Part shown: piece by piece, positions 36,001 through 42,000 of the stretch
Position numbering within the stretch: the stretch's first letter is position 1
How the letters are laid out: the number at the start of each line of letters is the position of its first letter
Source: Candidatus Firestoneibacteriota bacterium
Lineage (GTDB): Bacteria > Oederibacteriota > D2-FULL-39-29 > JBBTED01
NCBI GenBank assembly: GCA_038042445.1
Contig: JBBTED010000002.1
Span: 14,783-78,782, forward strand
DNA length: 64,000 nucleotides
Direction: 5' to 3'
Made by a program: the position numbers

Positions 36001-39000
36001 GATTACATAATCTATAGTGAGATACATGTATTAGATTACGCAAATTAGTTGTCCATATAACATTTGTTTTGCCTGCATTTGGAATGATAAACCTTGCATC
36101 TTCCTGAGATTGTTCTAATGATTTACCTTTATCTTTCAAATTTTTAACCTCATTATTATAATAGTCTACAATTTGTTTAACAATATCTTTGAATTTTTCT
36201 TCATCCAAAGATGGAGGTATAACAAAATAGTCATAATCACCAACATGGACATATCTTTGACTTTGCTGATTAAAAGCACCCATTCTATGCCTAACCAATT
36301 GATGAGAACAGGATCTTGACATACCACTTATTCCAAATGTAAAATTCGCATGCTCCAAAACTGAACCATGCCCCTGTTTAACTAATTCGTTAAACAACCT
36401 ATTTTTTAGTTTTTCGCTCCCTGCTTTTTCATAAGCCTCTTGTGGTGTTCCTTTTTGATAGCATAACAAAGCAGCAGCAACTGTAATTCTTTCTGGTTCT
36501 GGTGTATGTGTTAAAAGTTTGACTTCCATAATTATTATATACTGAAACAAGTTCAGGACAAATTCACTTTGCTTTCTGATTCATTGTACGAAACATATTA
36601 TAGACAAAAAGTAGTACTGAAATACCTTCGATTATATAAGATATAATTAATAATAATTGCCCAAAGTCGTCTTGTGATATTTTCAATATTGGCCACAAAA
36701 CACCCATTCCAATTAAGCCAATATTTGCAAGCCAAAACTGAATATCTGCCATTTTAGGAGAATAAAGAGGAGTTCCGTTAAACCTCGGCAATATATGATA
36801 ACCAACACCATATACCATCATAGTCATCCAACCAAGCAACCCAAAATGCACATGTGTAAACAACAAAGCATCTATAACAATTCCATTATAATGCCATATT
36901 CCCATAACAACACCCAAAACTGCAGCAAGTAAAAAATAAATAATTGATGCTTTTATAAATAATATTGTCGCTTTGCTCATAATTAATTCCCCCCTACCCC
37001 CCTTTAATAAAGGGGGTAAAATTGTTTTTAAAATGATTCTCTTCCTATTCTATGGACAAAAGAACCAAATCGTTCATTGTTTTTTGATTCTTGTATATAC
37101 AACTTTAAACATATCTCTAAAGATTGGACAACATCATTTTCATCAATAGTATCAAATAATTTAATTGCAAATTGTGGATGCCTTCCAAGTTTTCCTCCAA
37201 TAAACACAGAATAACTTCTTTTTTTAGTAACTAATGCACACACAGGACAAACTTTTATACACGCAAAACATCCAACACATTTAGAATAATCAATTATAGG
37301 CAAAATGTCATCTTTTATGTTTATAGCATTTTCTTTGCATTCTTCAATACAAAGTTTGCAATTTATACATTTACCATCTATCGCTTCTGGAAATACTTGT
37401 GCTATAACGCCAAAATCTTTTATCTGTGGCTGAGAACAAGCATTAGGACATTCTGATATAGAAACTCTAAATGTATGATGATACAATACAGGTCCATCTA
37501 TTTTATCAATCAAAATGTCTGTAGTTTTCATTTCATCAAGTTTAGCCTGTAATTTGACAATCAAATTTCTAGAATCCGCCAAAGACAAAGGGCATAAATG
37601 CTTATCATTGCATCCTGTTATTTCATATAGTTTAGATTTATCCGCAACAATTTGCGTTTCACATTCACTATTAAAAGGTTTTTGCATTAAAGATACTAAT
37701 TTTTCTGTATCTATACCTACTTTTAAAAATATAAGTTTCTTTACTTCATCTACATCATTTTCTGTTACTCTTATTCTATCTTTAGAAACAACATATTCTT
37801 CCACTTTTTTCTTAGCCAAACTTCTTACAAATACAGGTACTTTTTTAATTCTCGCAAAAGCGTCAGTTTCCCATTCCATAATTATAGTTAATTTCCCTTT
37901 GTAATAGCCGCATTTAATTCATTAACAAGAGTCTCTGGTTCAACATTGTGCATCATTGCGCCGAAACTTAATGACTCCATATTTATTCCAGCACAAGTAA
38001 AACATCCTCCTCCAAAATATTTTTCAATAACACTTTTTGTCTGAGGATATTTGGTAAGCACCTCACCTATCATCATATCTTTATTTATCTTAACAATATC
38101 AGCCATATTACCTCACCTTTTAAGATACCCAGTCTTCTGAAAGAATATCACCTTTAATACCAACGACTATAGATTTAACTGGAATTTTGCGTTTACTCAA
38201 AGCAAGAGATTCTTGTGCAATAGCCACTAAACCAGCACAACAAGGAACCTCCATAGTCATTATTGTAATCGTATTCACCTGCGCATCTTCTATAAGAGAT
38301 TTTATTTTCTCTACATAGCTCTCCTGTCCTTCATCTAATTTTGGACAAGCAATAGCAATAGTCTTGCCTTTTAAATAATCTTTATGAAAATCCCCAAGAG
38401 CATATCCTACACAATCTGCTGATATAAGTACATCAGCTTTTTGAAAATATGGAGCCTGTGGAGAAACCAAATGCAACTGAATAGGCCATTGCCTAAGTTG
38501 CGATGCTCTCTTACCTATCTCATCTTTGACTTCACTTTCCTTTTCCCTGAAATCCTGCATTTTTGCACCGGGACAACCGCAATTTGACGCACTCATTTTA
38601 ATCTACCTCCTTTTGTAGTCGTTCGCCTAAGCAAACGTCTACCTTTAACTACACATTTATTAGTGTAATTTTCTAAATCCTCAATAAATTTCTTGTATTT
38701 TTTCGCTGCTTTTTCTCCTATATTCTTTTCTGCTTCATTAAATTTAGAGAATATTTCACCAACTTGTGTTATCAAAAGTCCTCTATCAATCCATGGATAT
38801 AATATTTCGTCTTCTTTCTTTATATGTTGTGTTAGAAGTTTCTTATATTCCATAAGATGCTTAATAATTGCATTTTTATCGCCCTTTGTAAGGGCATCTA
38901 CTATTGATTTAACATGAAATCTACCTGCTTTATGATCTTCAAGCATCGTATTAATAATATCAAGATTGTTATCTACATATTTAAATAGAATATCCTCTTC

Positions 39001-42000
39001 TTTTGCATGATGAAATTTGTCCGCATAAGAACGTATAAAATCAACTATATTTACAATTAACTCTCTGCCAGATTTAGTTTTGACATCTAAAATCTCCATT
39101 ATATATGGTATAAGTGCCAATAATTTTTTTATCAAAATATGTTCATCTACTAATCTTTTTATTGGAGGCGAATATTTAATTTCTTTATTGTCTATTTTTT
39201 TAGCACATGGTTTAATTTTGGGTTTTTTGATTTTTCTATCTGGATAAATGTTCTTTTCTATTAAATACATTAAATCTATTTTTTGAGCATCAGGAAGATT
39301 ATGTATATTTACAACATCTTTTAAAAGGCAGGAACCAACACTACAAGGAACACATCCAATATTAAATTGTTCCAATATTGTTCCAACTTCAGTAAACCTC
39401 GTGATAACTTCTTTTATTGGTGTGTTCAAATATTTTTCCATATCATCCAACCTTCTTTCTATTTAAAATATACTAGATATTGAAATATTTGTATGTGATT
39501 TAAGTCACTACTTTTAAAATTCTTTTGGTTTTTCTTTGAAGAGTATAGAGATTTTTTTGCCCTGAATTTTGATTAGATTTTTTTTTTGTAATTGCTTTAA
39601 TGCTCTGGAAATAACCTCACGGACAGTACCCAATTTAGATGCAATATCCTGTTGAGATAATTTAAGCTCAATTATATTTGTTTTATTTTCATTTGCCAAT
39701 TTCAGCAAAAACTGCGCAAGCCGTTTTGAAACATCCATTAAGGAAAGCTGACCTATTTTTTCCACAAGCAAATCAAGATACTTTGAAAAAGTATGCAACA
39801 CTTTAAATGTTATATTAGAATTTTCTGCTAAAATTCTTAGCAAACCTGATTTTGAAATAAAAATTACTATAGAATCCTTCTTTGCCTCTGCATAAGCAGG
39901 ATATTTACCATCTTCTAAAAAAATAGGTGCTCCACCAAATATTTCACCATCATTAACAAAATGCAATATATATTCTTTACCTTCTTCTGATAATTTGTAT
40001 AATTTCAGCTCGCCTTTTTTTACAATATATATTCCCCTACATAATTCACCCTCTGAAAATACAATTTCGCCTTTATCAATTTTTAACTCTTTGCCTACAG
40101 AAAGAATTGCTTTTAAATCCTTGTTTTCTAAGCCAGAGAAAAATGGTAATGCTTTAAGAGATTCTTCCATTTCGATTTTATATAGAATGCCTGATATTTT
40201 GGATTGCTTTGACTATATCTTTCTCGTGAAATATTGCAACTCCTGCCACAAGAATATTAGCACCAGCCTTAATAACTTCCAATGATGTTTGGGCATTTAT
40301 CCCACCATCTACTTCTATATCAACATTTAAATGGTTCTTAACAATTTTGGAACGCAGGGTTTTTATTTTATTTAAACAATTATGTATAAATTTTTGTCCA
40401 CCAAAACCAGGATTAACTGTCATTATTAAAACAATATCTACTTCAGACAATATATCTTCTATTAAATACAAAGGAGTTGCAGGATTTAATGCTACACCAG
40501 CTTTCATCCCACAATTTTTGATATGCTGTATAGTTTTATTCAAATGTTTACAGACTTCAACATGGACTGTTAATATTGAGCTACCTGCATTTTTGAAATC
40601 TTCTATATATCTATCCGGATCATTTATCATTAAATGAACATCAAATGGCAATTTACATTTACCCCTCAAAGCTTTAATTACAGGCTGGCCTATTGTAATA
40701 TTAGGCACAAAATTCCCATCCATTACATCTATATGCAAAAAATCAGCACCTGCTTTTTCCACTTTTATAATATCTTTCAAAAGACAGGAAAAATTTGCAG
40801 CTAATATTGACGGCGAGATTTTTATTTTCATTCGCCTAGGCGAATTCCCTTTGGTCATAGTTTACGTTCCTCCACTATACTATTATTTATATATATATTT
40901 GCGATTGCTTCTCCTTTAACCTGAACACCAATTTCAATTTTTTCAGCCTGTTTACACATATTATTAAAAACTTCTTTTGTTCCACTATCATCAATTATAA
41001 TTATTTTAACTCGTTTCTCTGTTTTATCAGCTTCGCCTGGAACTATAAAAAATATATTTGCATAGCGAAAAGTATTTTCTTTATATCCATTTGAAAAAAT
41101 GGTGAGTTCTATTATATCTTCTTGCTTAACAGGAGAATTAGCTGGCGGATTTTGATTCATTATTACATCTTCACTTCCTTCTGCAGTATCAGCTATAATT
41201 ATTTTGTAGGCAATTTTTGCTTTGCGCAAATTTGACTTTACTTCATTTATCTTTTTACCAATAAAACTTGGCATACAATACCACATATCCGCTTGACCAT
41301 TTGAAATCAACAAATTCACAGCAGACCCACGTTTAATAAGCGAACCTGCAACTGGTGACTGAGCTATTATTTCGTCCTTGCCTTTTTCATAGCTAAACAC
41401 ACTTGCAAGCATACCGGTTTTAAGCCCACATTGTTCCATAATTAAATTTGCCTGTCTTAAAGGACGTGATGTTATATCAGGCATATAAACTGTTTTTGAA
41501 CCTTCACTTACAACCACAGAAATAACTCTTCCTTTTTTTACACGTTCACCTTCAGATGGTTCCTGAGAAACTATATGATTTGCTGGAATTGATTCATCAT
41601 ATCTTCTTTCATCTTCTTTTATTGAAAGTCCTTTGCTTTCACATAAAGTCTTTGCCTGCTCTATAGACAAACCTTTTATTGAAGGTATTATTACTTCACT
41701 ACCACGAATTACCAATTTCATTGATACATAAGCAGTTATAAATACTATAAATAAAAAAAATATAGACAATAAAATTTTTTTCATAGATTTAACGCTCTAA
41801 GCTGGCCACAAGCAGCACATATATCACTACCTTTTTCATGCCTTACAGTTACAGTTATTTTATTATTTTCTAATACTTTCTTCCATTTTTCAACCTGCTC
41901 AATCTTAACTTTCTTATACTCTACTCCAGAAACACAATTAAATGGAATAAGATTAACCTTGCATTTAATGTCTCCTGTTAAGGAAGCTAATTTCTTTATC

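Follow-up and report, generated by a model that had tools for sequence, protein, structure and literature searches.

A duplicated gene cluster with a single haem-copper oxidase/NnrS repeat unit and a DUF1858 protein in a Firestoneibacteriota bacterium, and its probable link to nitric oxide stress

The window analysed here is a stretch of 64,000 nucleotides from a Candidatus Firestoneibacteriota genome. An earlier note on this DNA had described a five-gene cluster at 36564-39441 and a Crp/Fnr gene next to it. All five genes are indeed found there, on the minus strand, and the regulator gene (39514..40170, minus strand, 218 aa; Pfam cNMP_binding 77 bits, HTH_Crp_2 63 bits) lies directly upstream. 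The gene next to it encodes a RIC-like di-iron hemerythrin protein (38593..39441, 282 aa; Pfam Hemerythrin 56 bits), whose ATG at 39441 is common to both paralogues and whose stop overlaps by 4 nt the start of a gene for a Cys-rich protein assigned to AF_0155 (PF27217) by the Atlas (38120..38596, 158 aa). These are followed by a stand-alone DUF1858 protein with a CxxC motif and a His (37888..38106, 72 aa; Pfam DUF1858 53 bits, TIGR03980 54.9 bits) and by a reductase-like Fe-S protein (37028..37879, 283 aa), in which Pfam identifies PCP_red and then NIR_SIR with an inserted 2x[4Fe-4S] ferredoxin. The last gene (36564..36980, 138 aa) encodes a four-helix membrane protein, hereafter mini-HCO, that carries the pair H43-x-H45 and whose residues 3-95 match positions 305-397 of the 436 in the Pfam COX1 profile (E 1.2e-11). 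We read the five genes as one operon. A putative minus-strand stem-loop (36989..37015) lies in the 47-nt gap that separates the reductase-like gene from the mini-HCO; it comes from a pattern scan that found two stem-loops where 1.6 were expected.

In the DUF1858 protein, C35-x2-C38 and H53 are invariant in 51/51 aligned homologues. Among solved relatives, the reductase-like protein best matches F420-dependent sulfite reductase, in its C-terminal half (E 3e-23); the translation of the gene contains CX5C and CX3C motifs. The 158-aa protein had no match in the copies of Pfam and NCBIfam that we searched; its likeness to AF_0155, proposed previously, is borne out by an Atlas feature score of 0.97 and by structural similarity to AF_0155 clusters (TM 0.85-0.91). 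Many of these Atlas clusters are fused to 2x[4Fe-4S] domains, and the protein probably binds Fe-S clusters. Finally, the hemerythrin protein begins with a weak DUF1858-type domain with CxxC (TIGR03980, E 0.0027, residues 10-39), and gives YtfE/RIC matches that are weak and below their cut-offs. It shares with RIC/YtfE/ScdA the order of the parts, i.e., a small domain of the ScdA_N/DUF1858 type with paired Cys at the N-terminus and then a hemerythrin-like four-helix di-iron domain. However, it scores 23.5 bits against an equivalog cut-off of 204.7, and has CxxC where RIC is described with a DfCCgG motif.

The recognition helix of the Crp/Fnr regulator reads R-E-V-I-S-R in the translation. According to the parts of Rodionov 2005 (PMC1274295) that we consulted, an R-E pair in this helix correlates with TGTGA-type boxes. 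The same parts describe HcpR, which belongs to the CRP family and regulates hcp in Desulfovibrio. It shares with our protein the CRP-family domains and the R-E pair, and its box, wTGTGAnnnnnnTCACAw, is matched here. More precisely, a palindrome at 39494..39509 reads AGTGA-N6-TCACA on the minus strand (9/10 core bases), and the second copy of the cluster, on contig C49, has an exact TGTGA-N6-TCACA at the same place. Together with a predicted -10-like hexamer, TATATT, counted by eye at 39467..39472 on the minus strand, the palindrome would be centred near -41.5 in both operons, the geometry of class II activation. The genome contains 59 such sites with at most one mismatch (2.8 exact ones are expected by chance), only five of them in the 250 nt that precede an ORF, and two of these five regions belong to the paralogous operons. 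The palindrome and promoter are conserved between the copies about as much as the coding DNA, so their presence in both may simply be inherited. None of the five boxed regions belongs to the Prismane-family gene of this genome (contig C149, Hcp or CODH type); hence, the defining target of HcpR is not seen for this regulator. At least 15 of 80 related loci have a Crp-family gene no more than 300 nt away.

The C49 copy, whose proteins are 84.1, 75.7, 87.1, 85.3, and 78.1% identical to those of the window (tblastn against the genome), confirms the duplication described previously. Between the copies, the mini-HCO has a dN/dS of 0.24, and the values for the five genes range over 0.20-0.31, showing that both copies are under purifying selection. 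The genome has only two DUF1858 genes at the Pfam level, one per cluster. As also reported before, C49 has two additional genes, which separate the NIR_SIR gene from the mini-HCO and stand at the site that corresponds to the gap with the stem-loop. They encode a 527-aa COX1 protein, the only full-length one in the genome, and a 187-aa protein. The nearest solved relative of the former is a B-family ba3 oxidase, which has WWTGHPIVY where all 118 aligned homologues of the C49 protein have WWGLDM[VI]ADG. The Asp in place of the active-site copper-ligand His is a hallmark of gNOR, a family of the oxidase superfamily proposed to be a NO reductase (Murali et al. 2024, PMC11214002; passages seen). 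The other hallmark is a subunit II of cupredoxin fold with Ser at both CuA cysteine positions, as found in the 187-aa protein. The pair thus fits gNOR, with NO reductase activity as its predicted function. Those passages on gNOR mention no mini-HCO, DUF1858, or RIC-like neighbours.

The earlier note considered that the mini-HCO resembles only a C-terminal part of oxidase subunit I. The C-terminal match stands, but it is not the only one. When the family profile was aligned with hhalign to the 118 homologues of the C49 oxidase, it matched residues 368-514 (E 1.2e-10), 9-166 (E 3.2e-9), and 235-363 (E 0.085). The three matches stand in register. Six controls with reversed sequences gave E 0.07-0.42. 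Since the first and last thirds are matched about equally well, the mini-HCO represents a four-helix repeat unit. The profile also matches CcoN in three places, where H43 falls on H60 and H345, and H45 on H347 and, by spacing, on H207; we take these residues to be ligands of haem b, haem b3, and CuB. The mini-HCO is the equivalent of a single unit of the three that are repeated in HCO subunit I and in NnrS.

This unit belongs to a large stand-alone family, with 890 cluster representatives at E<=1e-10 (3376 at E<=1e-3) among 1.84 billion, and 166 of 246 scored candidates at E<=1e-3 in the 90% clusters. Their database name, 'cbb3-type cytochrome c oxidase subunit I', is misleading. An alignment of 36 sequences has 19 invariant columns, and the H-x-H pair highlighted in the earlier note is kept in 36/36. 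H62 is also invariant in these nearest sequences; about 17 of 96 one-unit proteins have Phe in its place, so that it is no general ligand. The conserved ligand positions suggest a membrane haem protein. The monomer is modelled with confidence as four helices (pLDDT 86) and resembles oxidase chains (TMq 0.7-0.82), which make up 47 of the 48 rows listed, although AlphaFold may lean on oxidase structures in its training.

The unit also exists in fused forms. Among the best 149 representatives, 99 have one unit, 4 have two, and 46 have three, and HxH is retained in all three units of proteins P0241 and P0243. The model of P0241 (413 aa; pLDDT 94, pTM 0.93; Foldseek E 1.6e-11) superposes 394 of its 413 residues on the whole of CcoN (Z 37.9, rmsd 2.9 A). 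Oxidases and NO reductases account for all ten of its best structural matches, after which the next one reaches a Z of 10.4. Half of the three-unit proteins (23/46) pass the Pfam cut-off for NnrS and, conversely, the mini-HCO profile matches 35 of 65 NnrS-like proteins three times, 26 twice, and 4 once. The window mini-HCO itself has no Pfam NnrS match at E<=0.01. The description of this protein as uncharacterised therefore needs a nuance: because NnrS is homologous, the mini-HCO has relatives of known role. In V. cholerae, the portion of the literature seen indicates that nnrS supports NO resistance.

DUF1858 is the commonest gene neighbour of the unit: a homologue is present in 53 of the 80 related loci, as the next same-strand gene in 33 of them, and DUF1858 is fused to 24 of the 33 one-unit proteins that have an extension. 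We propose that the stand-alone DUF1858 protein is a cytoplasmic partner of the membrane unit. A DUF1858 gene is also part of the NnrR regulon of B. diazoefficiens, in the excerpt consulted.

What could such a cluster do? A module for nitrosative stress or NO handling, as suggested in the earlier note, is favoured by the gNOR hallmarks on C49, by the palindromes at both operons, by the homology with NnrS, and by a Chloroflexia MAG in which the mini-HCO, DUF1858, NirS, YgbA_NO, and gNOR follow each other in this order on the same strand. Haem binding, the trimer, the docking of DUF1858, and the response to NO are the parts that we infer. We give a probability of roughly 60% to an NO-stress operon with an NnrS-like, probably trimeric, haem-binding membrane assembly that docks DUF1858 proteins. 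The neighbouring HcpR-like regulator of the CRP family would switch the operon on, most likely in response to NO or nitrite. Three copies of the mini-HCO would assemble as a 12-helix ring resembling HCO subunit I or NnrS, with H45 of one subunit and H43 of the next at each of the three interfaces, yielding three putative bis-His haem b sites near the outer membrane face. The cytoplasmic face of the ring would dock DUF1858-type domains, i.e., the stand-alone protein and the N-terminus of the hemerythrin protein. The reductase-like and AF_0155 proteins may act as electron donors or relays (the direction in which electrons or NO would flow is conjectural), and the assembly would protect or repair iron centres under NO stress, as an NnrS-like system. 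On C49, the operon also includes a NO reductase of gNOR type, which would remove NO. Several points count against this scheme: the four proteins with two units are hard to reconcile with a simple three-fold ring, bis-His haems, being six-coordinate, are better suited to electron transfer than to NO chemistry, and this 90%-complete genome yielded no ferrochelatase.

An unlikely alternative is that the unit serves general Fe-S biogenesis or delivery, e.g., as a membrane redox or iron hand-over system for NifU/Mrp-type carriers, with no specific link to NO. Besides DUF1858, the commonest same-strand partners in the 80 loci are NifU-like proteins (28), Mrp/NUBPL ATPases with a FeS_assembly_P domain (20), and small ferredoxins (15), and most related loci have Fe-S carriers as neighbours and no NO enzyme nearby. 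One NnrS-like fusion also carries a FeS_assembly_P domain. However, the window operon has neither a NifU nor a Mrp gene, whereas it has a RIC-like hemerythrin and its paralogue has gNOR. Furthermore, the Chloroflexia locus ties the mini-HCO and DUF1858 to NirS, YgbA_NO, and gNOR, and the NnrS relatives belong to NO regulons in the sources we saw in part. The two readings overlap, as the repair of NO-damaged clusters satisfies both.

It is improbable that the mini-HCO forms no assembly of its own and serves a full-length oxidase or NO reductase (here gNOR) as an accessory subunit, much as small additional subunits do in other oxidases. The gene does directly follow that of gNOR subunit I on C49, gNOR is 3.5-4 kb downstream in locus L031, and other full-length COX1 genes are 1.6-2 kb away in four loci. 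Yet, the window copy has no adjoining oxidase gene, the sole full-length COX1 gene of the genome being that of C49. Across the 80 loci, a full-length oxidase was found in only 5 (phmmer with the C49 oxidase), and a COX1-type neighbour in 13 by separate clustering. The two- and three-unit forms and the DUF1858 fusions point instead to self-assembly and a cytoplasmic partner.

We attach a similarly small weight to a response to O2 or oxidative stress, in which the hemerythrin and Crp/Fnr proteins would sense O2 and the oxidase-like ones handle it. A response to O2 is common for hemerythrin domains and for regulators of the Fnr type, and proteins of the oxidase fold reduce O2. In addition, gNOR is only proposed to be a NO reductase in the passages of PMC11214002. 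Against this, the C49 oxidase lacks the copper-ligand His and the cross-linked Tyr needed for O2 reduction (Asp occupies both positions in 118/118 homologues), no Fnr-type N-terminal Cys cluster was seen when the regulator sequence was read by eye, and NirS and YgbA_NO are among the neighbours in locus L031. Lastly, the idea that the 138-aa ORF is a decayed, functionless remnant of an oxidase gene, suggested by its partial match to the COX1 profile, has a negligible probability and is refuted by the conservation data, namely two intact copies with low dN/dS, hundreds of same-length homologues in several phyla, the invariant columns, and the confident model.

The proposed architecture has a precedent in styrene oxide isomerase (PDB 8pnu), a small membrane enzyme that, in the part of the source seen, forms a trimer with three haem b at the subunit interfaces. 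Among non-oxidases it gives the best fold match to one unit, over 120 residues at an rmsd of 3.2 A and a Z of 10.4, a value within the chance range of helical bundles. It is likened to the mini-HCO by fold alone, and it differs in its single His ligand on the haem and in its chemistry. With HCO subunit I (COX1; especially cbb3 CcoN and NorB), the mini-HCO shares fold and sequence over one third of that protein, and its HxH falls on the pair of haem ligands in helix X, whereas it has 4 helices instead of 12 and lacks the copper ligands of helices VI and VII. NnrS (PF05940), a membrane protein of NO-responsive regulons that contains haem and copper, has 12 helices made up of three units, each homologous to the mini-HCO. 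It differs from it in having three units instead of one, in its copper, for which we have no evidence in the mini-HCO, and in the YxH that the individually inspected NnrS-like proteins have in units 2 and 3, where the mini-HCO has HxH. The two share the partner domain, as DUF1858/ScdA_N is fused to 16 of the 23 NnrS-like three-unit proteins, and, from the material consulted on NnrS, the kind of regulon, with NO-responsive Crp/Fnr or NorR regulators. The one-unit mini-HCO may show the origin of both the large respiratory oxidases and NnrS.

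The five closely spaced minus-strand genes that run from 39441 down to 36564 are best read as an operon responding to nitric oxide (NO) stress under an HcpR-like regulator. Its membrane part would be a single-unit relative of both NnrS and oxidase subunit I, probably a trimeric ring of bis-His haems onto which DUF1858 domains dock, and we give this reading as a whole a probability of roughly 0.6. The first gene encodes a 282-aa hemerythrin protein (PF01814, 56.3 bits) with a weak DUF1858-type N-terminus, and its stop is overlapped by 4 nt by the start of the second gene, which encodes a Cys-rich protein of 158 aa. 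The third gene (a DUF1858 protein, 72 aa) begins 13 nt further on, and the fourth, 8 nt after it, encodes a 283-aa protein with PCP_red, NIR_SIR, and two ferredoxin-type clusters. A gap of 47 nt precedes the fifth gene, which encodes the 138-aa mini haem-copper-oxidase protein (mini-HCO, 36564-36980, Pfam COX1). As the earlier note had reported, a Crp/Fnr-family gene stands beside the cluster; it ends 72 nt upstream of the first operon gene. On the other side, thyX (35816-36550, same strand) starts 13-34 nt past the mini-HCO stop with no clear terminator in between, and it may be co-transcribed with the operon.

The soluble proteins fit their families to different degrees. The DUF1858 protein belongs to its family (Pfam DUF1858 53 bits, TIGR03980 54.9 bits, CxxC present). 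The hemerythrin protein scores 23.5 bits against the 204.7 required by the RIC equivalog TIGR03652, lacks a proper ScdA_N domain, and has at its N-terminus only a weak TIGR03980 match (E 0.0027). The reductase-like protein has an NIR_SIR domain (PF01077, 60 bits) with the CX5C...CX3C cluster/sirohaem motif and aligns with the C-terminal half of Fsr (E 3e-23). It has no NIR_SIR_ferr match in Pfam, and is thus not a complete two-module sulfite or nitrite reductase, and all of its NCBIfam scores are far under the cut-offs. The Cys-rich protein has no match in the local Pfam and NCBIfam libraries; the Atlas assigns it to PF27217 (AF_0155), a domain that is often fused to two [4Fe-4S] clusters.

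All five genes are found again by tblastn on another contig of the genome, C49, with identities of 84, 76, 87, 85, and 78%. The two diverged copies described in the earlier note are thus real, and so are the oxidase and the second additional gene that it placed within the C49 copy: genes for proteins of 187 and 527 aa sit there between the reductase-like gene and the mini-HCO gene. Every detail of that note that could be checked was borne out. The five gene pairs have dS values of 0.28-0.55 and dN/dS values of 0.20-0.31 (Nei-Gojobori counts), and both copies have therefore been kept by selection. The idea that the mini-HCO reading frame is a pseudogene is ruled out by its conservation and by these ratios. 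The 47-nt gap of the copy studied here (36981-37027) holds a G-rich stem-loop (36989-37015), exactly at the site where C49 carries its two additional genes.

The mini-HCO exceeds the Pfam COX1 cut-off (44.7 bits against 34.8, E 1.2e-11) over positions 305-397 of the 436 in the profile only. COX1 proteins are defined by twelve core helices in one chain, whereas these 138 aa form four (3-28, 33-68, 75-102, and 105-133 in the AlphaFold model, pLDDT 86.4). Among the metal ligands of COX1 (the His of helix II, the His of helix VI, the His-His of helix VII, and the His-x-His of helix X), only the His-x-His is present, and V95 and L96 occupy the positions of the helix VII pair, judged by spacing. This retained H-x-H pair had already been pointed out, and both residues, H43 and H45, are among the 19 invariant columns of a 36-member alignment, which also include Y61, H62, P65, N86, and N128. 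Foldseek searches with the model returned subunit I chains of oxidases or NO reductases in 47 of the 48 rows listed (TMq 0.6-0.82), none of them at E <= 0.001. The best E-value of the monomer was 0.02; the fold assignment rests on TM-scores together with the sequence profile.

Such stand-alone proteins form a large family. A word-indexed search gave 166 of 246 scored candidates at E <= 1e-3, nearly all of 125-163 aa, and when 1.84 billion cluster representatives were searched exhaustively with the profile, 3376 matched at E <= 1e-3 and 890 at E <= 1e-10. The hosts include Nitrospirota, Thermodesulfobacteriota, Planctomycetota (Brocadia), Chloroflexota, and one archaeon, and the named members carry the label 'cbb3-type cytochrome c oxidase subunit I'. 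When 30 genomes related at class or phylum level were searched, a single one had a family member, which is fused to DUF1858; a second match turned out to be an ordinary cbb3 CcoN-CcoO fusion. Family members are thus rare among these relatives (1 of 30), and the operon may have been acquired from elsewhere. The region is contained in 11 sequencing runs from 4 studies, all of them DNA runs and mostly groundwater metagenomes.

The earlier note had likened the mini-HCO to a C-terminal part of subunit I. The Pfam match agrees with this, yet that part is not the sole region of likeness. In an hhalign comparison with 118 aligned homologues of the C49 oxidase, the family profile matched residues 368-514 (E 1.2e-10, 134 columns) and residues 9-166 (E 3.2e-9, 135 columns), while the match to residues 235-363 was weak (E 0.085), yet in register. 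When the thirds of the oxidase were cut out singly, the E-values were 1.6e-12, 1.8e-10, and 0.047, against 0.07-0.42 for six reversed-sequence controls. Within the oxidase family, the first third also aligns with the last (E 1.4e-9; reversed control 0.056). The mini-HCO is equally close to helices I-IV and IX-XII, and what 'C-terminal part' describes too narrowly is better called the four-helix repeat unit of the oxidase fold.

The cbb3 oxidase subunit I, CcoN, shows the same periodicity, as the family profile matches it at three places (12/13-145/152, 213/215-246/280, and 307/308-405/408). In these alignments, H43 falls on H60 and on H345, and H45 falls on H347; by spacing from the conserved Tyr, H45 also corresponds to H207. 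We take H347 and H60 to be the first and second ligands of haem b, H345 the ligand of haem b3, and H207 a ligand of CuB. If these identities are right, each cofactor site of the oxidase lies between two successive units, of which the former supplies its second His and the latter its first.

Natural fusions of the unit occur as well. The 149 best representatives comprise 99 proteins with one unit, 4 with two (273-291 aa), and 46 with three (388-767 aa). The clearest case is the cluster representative P0241 (413 aa), whose three units score 107-127 bits each and all keep the His-x-His, as do those of P0243. Folded with 27 natural relatives, P0241 gave a model of high confidence (pLDDT 94.0, pTM 0.93). 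With 394 of its 413 residues, this model superposes on the whole of CcoN (Z 37.9, rmsd 2.9 A); for NorB, Z is 36.9. Its ten best structure matches are all oxidases or NO reductases, the next best having a Z of 10.4, and Foldseek agrees (E 1.6e-11, TM 0.79/0.70). As far as the model can tell, three consecutive units therefore make the oxidase fold, and this is the main reason to expect that three free units would assemble alike. Residues 1-125 of P0241, taken separately, have styrene oxide isomerase as their best non-oxidase fold match (Z 10.4), followed by MAPEG-type proteins (Z 9.7-10.2). The former is described as a small trimeric membrane protein. This likeness may reflect just a common helical arrangement. 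MAPEG proteins are trimeric as well.

The four two-unit proteins (P0242, P0244, P0255, and P0288, the first of which lacks the first His in its first unit) are left unaccounted for by a three-fold ring. In a FastTree of 232 units, 108 of the 128 units of three-unit proteins are nearest to the unit at the same position of another protein. By this rough count, which serves as a lead only, the triplications behind most three-unit proteins would be old. For P0241, in contrast, the nearest units belong to two-unit and one-unit proteins, a hint that fusion happened more than once. In the literature within reach, which mostly excluded subscription journals, we found no paper on a free-standing oxidase unit, on a triplication in oxidases, or on a relation between NnrS and oxidases; in EncoMPASS, oxidases are not mentioned.

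The three-unit proteins lead directly to NnrS, a core member of NO regulons as described by Rodionov et al. (2005, PMC1274295). Half of them (23 of 46) exceed the Pfam NnrS gathering score, 22 match COX1 only, and 1 has no match; in the COX1-only proteins, each unit tends toward the last third of the COX1 profile. The mini-HCO family profile finds three matches in each protein that passes NnrS, at 20-70 bits per unit. A search started from one NnrS-like member gave 70 proteins, including ScdA_N-NnrS-DUF1858 fusions of anammox bacteria, and the names of the matches include 'uncharacterized protein involved in response to NO'. Of these 70, 65 were new to the analysis; the same profile has three matches in 35 of them, two in 26, and one in 4, and the set includes proteins with NnrS as their sole Pfam family. 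The mini-HCO itself has no match to Pfam NnrS (PF05940) at E <= 0.01. Judged by sequence, it is related to the building block of NnrS but does not belong to that family. An NnrS family search of its own genome gave no match, with control genomes equally silent, and a tblastn search of plasmids with an NnrS-like protein, seeking an annotated nnrS, also gave none.

The most constant companion of the unit is DUF1858. Matching stretches were estimated at 1400 (599 candidates, 501 of them confirmed), and we sampled 80 loci, relatives of Nitrospira, Thermodesulfovibrio, and Brocadia among them. Of the 80 loci, 53 have a DUF1858 homologue, which in 33 is the next gene on the same strand within 300 nt. 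The association extends to fusions: one-unit representatives extended by 60 aa or more carry DUF1858 in 24 of 33 cases by HMM and in 10 of the 12 tested with Pfam, and in 16 of the 23 NnrS-like proteins with three units, DUF1858 or ScdA_N is present at one end or at both. The two genes of the paralogous clusters are the only Pfam-level DUF1858 genes of the genome. The domain keeps its C-x2-C pair and one His throughout the 51 sequences aligned (C35, C38, and H53 are invariant). Lys and Arg are abundant at both ends of the unit and in its helix 2-3 loop, and by homology with oxidases both ends would be cytoplasmic, in keeping with a DUF1858 on that side of the membrane. In RIC/YtfE proteins, ScdA_N forms the N-terminal domain, and a hydrophobic channel connects it to the di-iron site. 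In Bradyrhizobium, a DUF1858 gene is described among the most strongly NnrR-dependent genes. The Thermus DrpA/DrpB paper presents a protein with DUF1858 and DUF2249 as a proposed nitrate-signalling component and mentions no oxidase-like partner; it hints that DUF1858 proteins can sit at the membrane.

Other neighbours were classed from same-strand operon maps, with one representative per group checked in Pfam. Across the 80 loci, they include a NifU-like protein (28), an Mrp/NUBPL ATPase (20), a small ferredoxin (15), and a cupin (8), and in Thermodesulfobacteriota the genes commonly run in the order NifU, ferredoxin, unit, DUF1858, ScdA_N, Mrp. At least 15 loci have a Crp-family gene within 300 nt. 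AF_0155 homologues occur in 4 of the 80 loci and a shorter reductase-like protein in 3. Relatives in Brocadia have two BcrAD/HGD-D fusion genes (8 of 80 loci). In these Brocadia/Planctomycetota loci (L015, L016, L018, L023, L029, L053, L055, and L058), the unit is followed by two large BcrAD_BadFG + HGD-D fusions and not by DUF1858; the fusions resemble activators or components of 2-hydroxyacyl-CoA dehydratases or benzoyl-CoA reductases. Four Thermodesulfobacteriota loci (L002, L004, L005, and L010) have a different full-length COX1-family protein of ~504-511 aa, encoded 1.6-2 kb upstream of the unit on the opposite strand, and a related 468-aa reading frame occurs in locus L017 (COX1 E 5e-24).

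The C49 copy provides a direct link to NO. The gene pair inserted there (591-2766, minus strand) encodes a 527-aa subunit I, the only full-length COX1 gene of the genome, and a 187-aa subunit II. The nearest solved relative of the former is the B-family ba3 oxidase, whose WWTGHPIVY corresponds to WWGLDMIAD in the C49 protein: Asp stands in place of the copper-ligand His and of the cross-linked Tyr alike, as it does in 118 of 118 homologues, with D269 aligned to ba3 H233. Subunit II matches its ba3 counterpart in the cupredoxin domain (E 4e-5), and Ser occupies the positions of both CuA Cys residues. These are the features that define gNOR, a proposed quinol-dependent NO reductase (Murali et al. 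2024, PMC11214002). A locus of a Chloroflexia MAG (L031) carries on one strand, in this order, the unit, DUF1858, a 111-aa reading frame, a cupredoxin-cytochrome c-cd1 nitrite reductase, YgbA_NO, and gNOR subunits II and I; the last two match the C49 proteins with E 1.6e-45 (subunit II) and E 1e-180 (subunit I).

Regulation points the same way. The same palindrome precedes both operons, as TGTGA-N6-TCACA on C49 and as AGTGA-N6-TCACA at 39494-39509 here. Its centre lies 41.5 nt upstream of the start expected behind TATATT (39467-39472), a spacing that suggests the geometry of class II CRP/FNR activation. The neighbouring Crp/Fnr-family regulator has R-E in its recognition helix. Rodionov et al. 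(2005, PMC1274295) link this pair to G3 and A6 in boxes of the TGTGA type and give wTGTGAnnnnnnTCACAw as the HcpR consensus of Desulfovibrio. In its CRP/FNR domains, its R-E pair, and the TGTGA-N6-TCACA box at its presumed target promoter, the regulator resembles HcpR. The whole genome has 59 sites with at most one mismatch (5 exact, against 2.8 expected), of which 5 lie within 250 nt upstream of a reading frame, and 2 of those 5 are the two operons. The Prismane-family gene (on contig C149) is not among the 5 upstream regions with a box at one mismatch or fewer, and control of hcp, as by HcpR, was accordingly not found. Two more CRP-type boxes upstream of reading frames (G000:C177:10887 and G000:C67:78483) may belong to the same regulon; one, exact, lies 162 nt before the gene of a ferritin-like-looking protein of 164 aa, and the other, with one mismatch, 23 nt before that of a 729-aa protein. 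A generic promoter and terminator scan gave results at chance level.

The shared box may have been inherited rather than independently kept, as the promoter regions of the two copies are about as similar as their coding DNA, with the similarity beginning ~30 nt upstream of the box. It starts in the last codons of the window's crp gene (39510-39540; 5277-5310 on C49), while C49 has no crp gene at that place and carries instead a gene for a HicB-like antitoxin (5386-5610). An edge of similarity inside crp, together with the missing crp on C49, suggests that the boundary of the duplication ran through this gene.

Under the reading of a NO-stress operon, the ring would consist of three mini-HCO units with three bis-His haems and would dock DUF1858 domains, among them the one in the RIC-like hemerythrin protein, with the two Fe-S proteins as putative electron carriers. 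It might pass electrons, bind NO, or hand NO over from the repair proteins to a reductase. Taken singly, haem binding by the mini-HCO has somewhat better than even odds, and its assembly into a trimer is about an even call. The genome has ALAD, and a ferrochelatase was not found in it (90% complete), a combination that would fit a sirohaem-dependent haem route; it also encodes a full oxidase-family protein, a type that requires haem.

A bolder proposal, to which we give a little less than even odds, is that the mini-HCO family is the living single-unit form of the ancestor whose triplication gave rise to oxidase subunit I and to NnrS. The mini-HCO would act as a homotrimer whose three bis-His haems are equivalent, each bound between two successive units through the second His of the former and the first His of the latter. 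The ancestral job of the fold would have been protection against NO or of iron centres, together with DUF1858 domains, not the respiration of oxygen. In oxidases, one of the three sites would still be a bis-His haem, one would have become the haem-copper (or haem-iron) catalytic centre, and one would have been lost. With the ligand identities that we assume for CcoN, its positions match exactly this pattern of three fates.

Most aerobic respiration and a large share of global N2O production depend on haem-copper oxidases. For the origin of their 12-helix catalytic subunit, the widespread, free-standing four-helix unit provides a concrete and purifiable series of forms, which includes natural two- and three-unit fusions folding like the whole subunit. 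At a practical level, hundreds of genes labelled 'cbb3-type cytochrome c oxidase subunit I' are misnamed and could be mistaken for evidence of aerobic respiration in anaerobes. Among known systems, the finding ties together NnrS, which protects against NO, DUF1858/ScdA_N, the domain of RIC proteins, and gNOR, the predicted NO reductase. If DUF1858 is indeed the module by which cytoplasmic repair proteins of iron centres dock to membrane units of this fold, this would account for NnrS as well as for the N-terminal domain of RIC.
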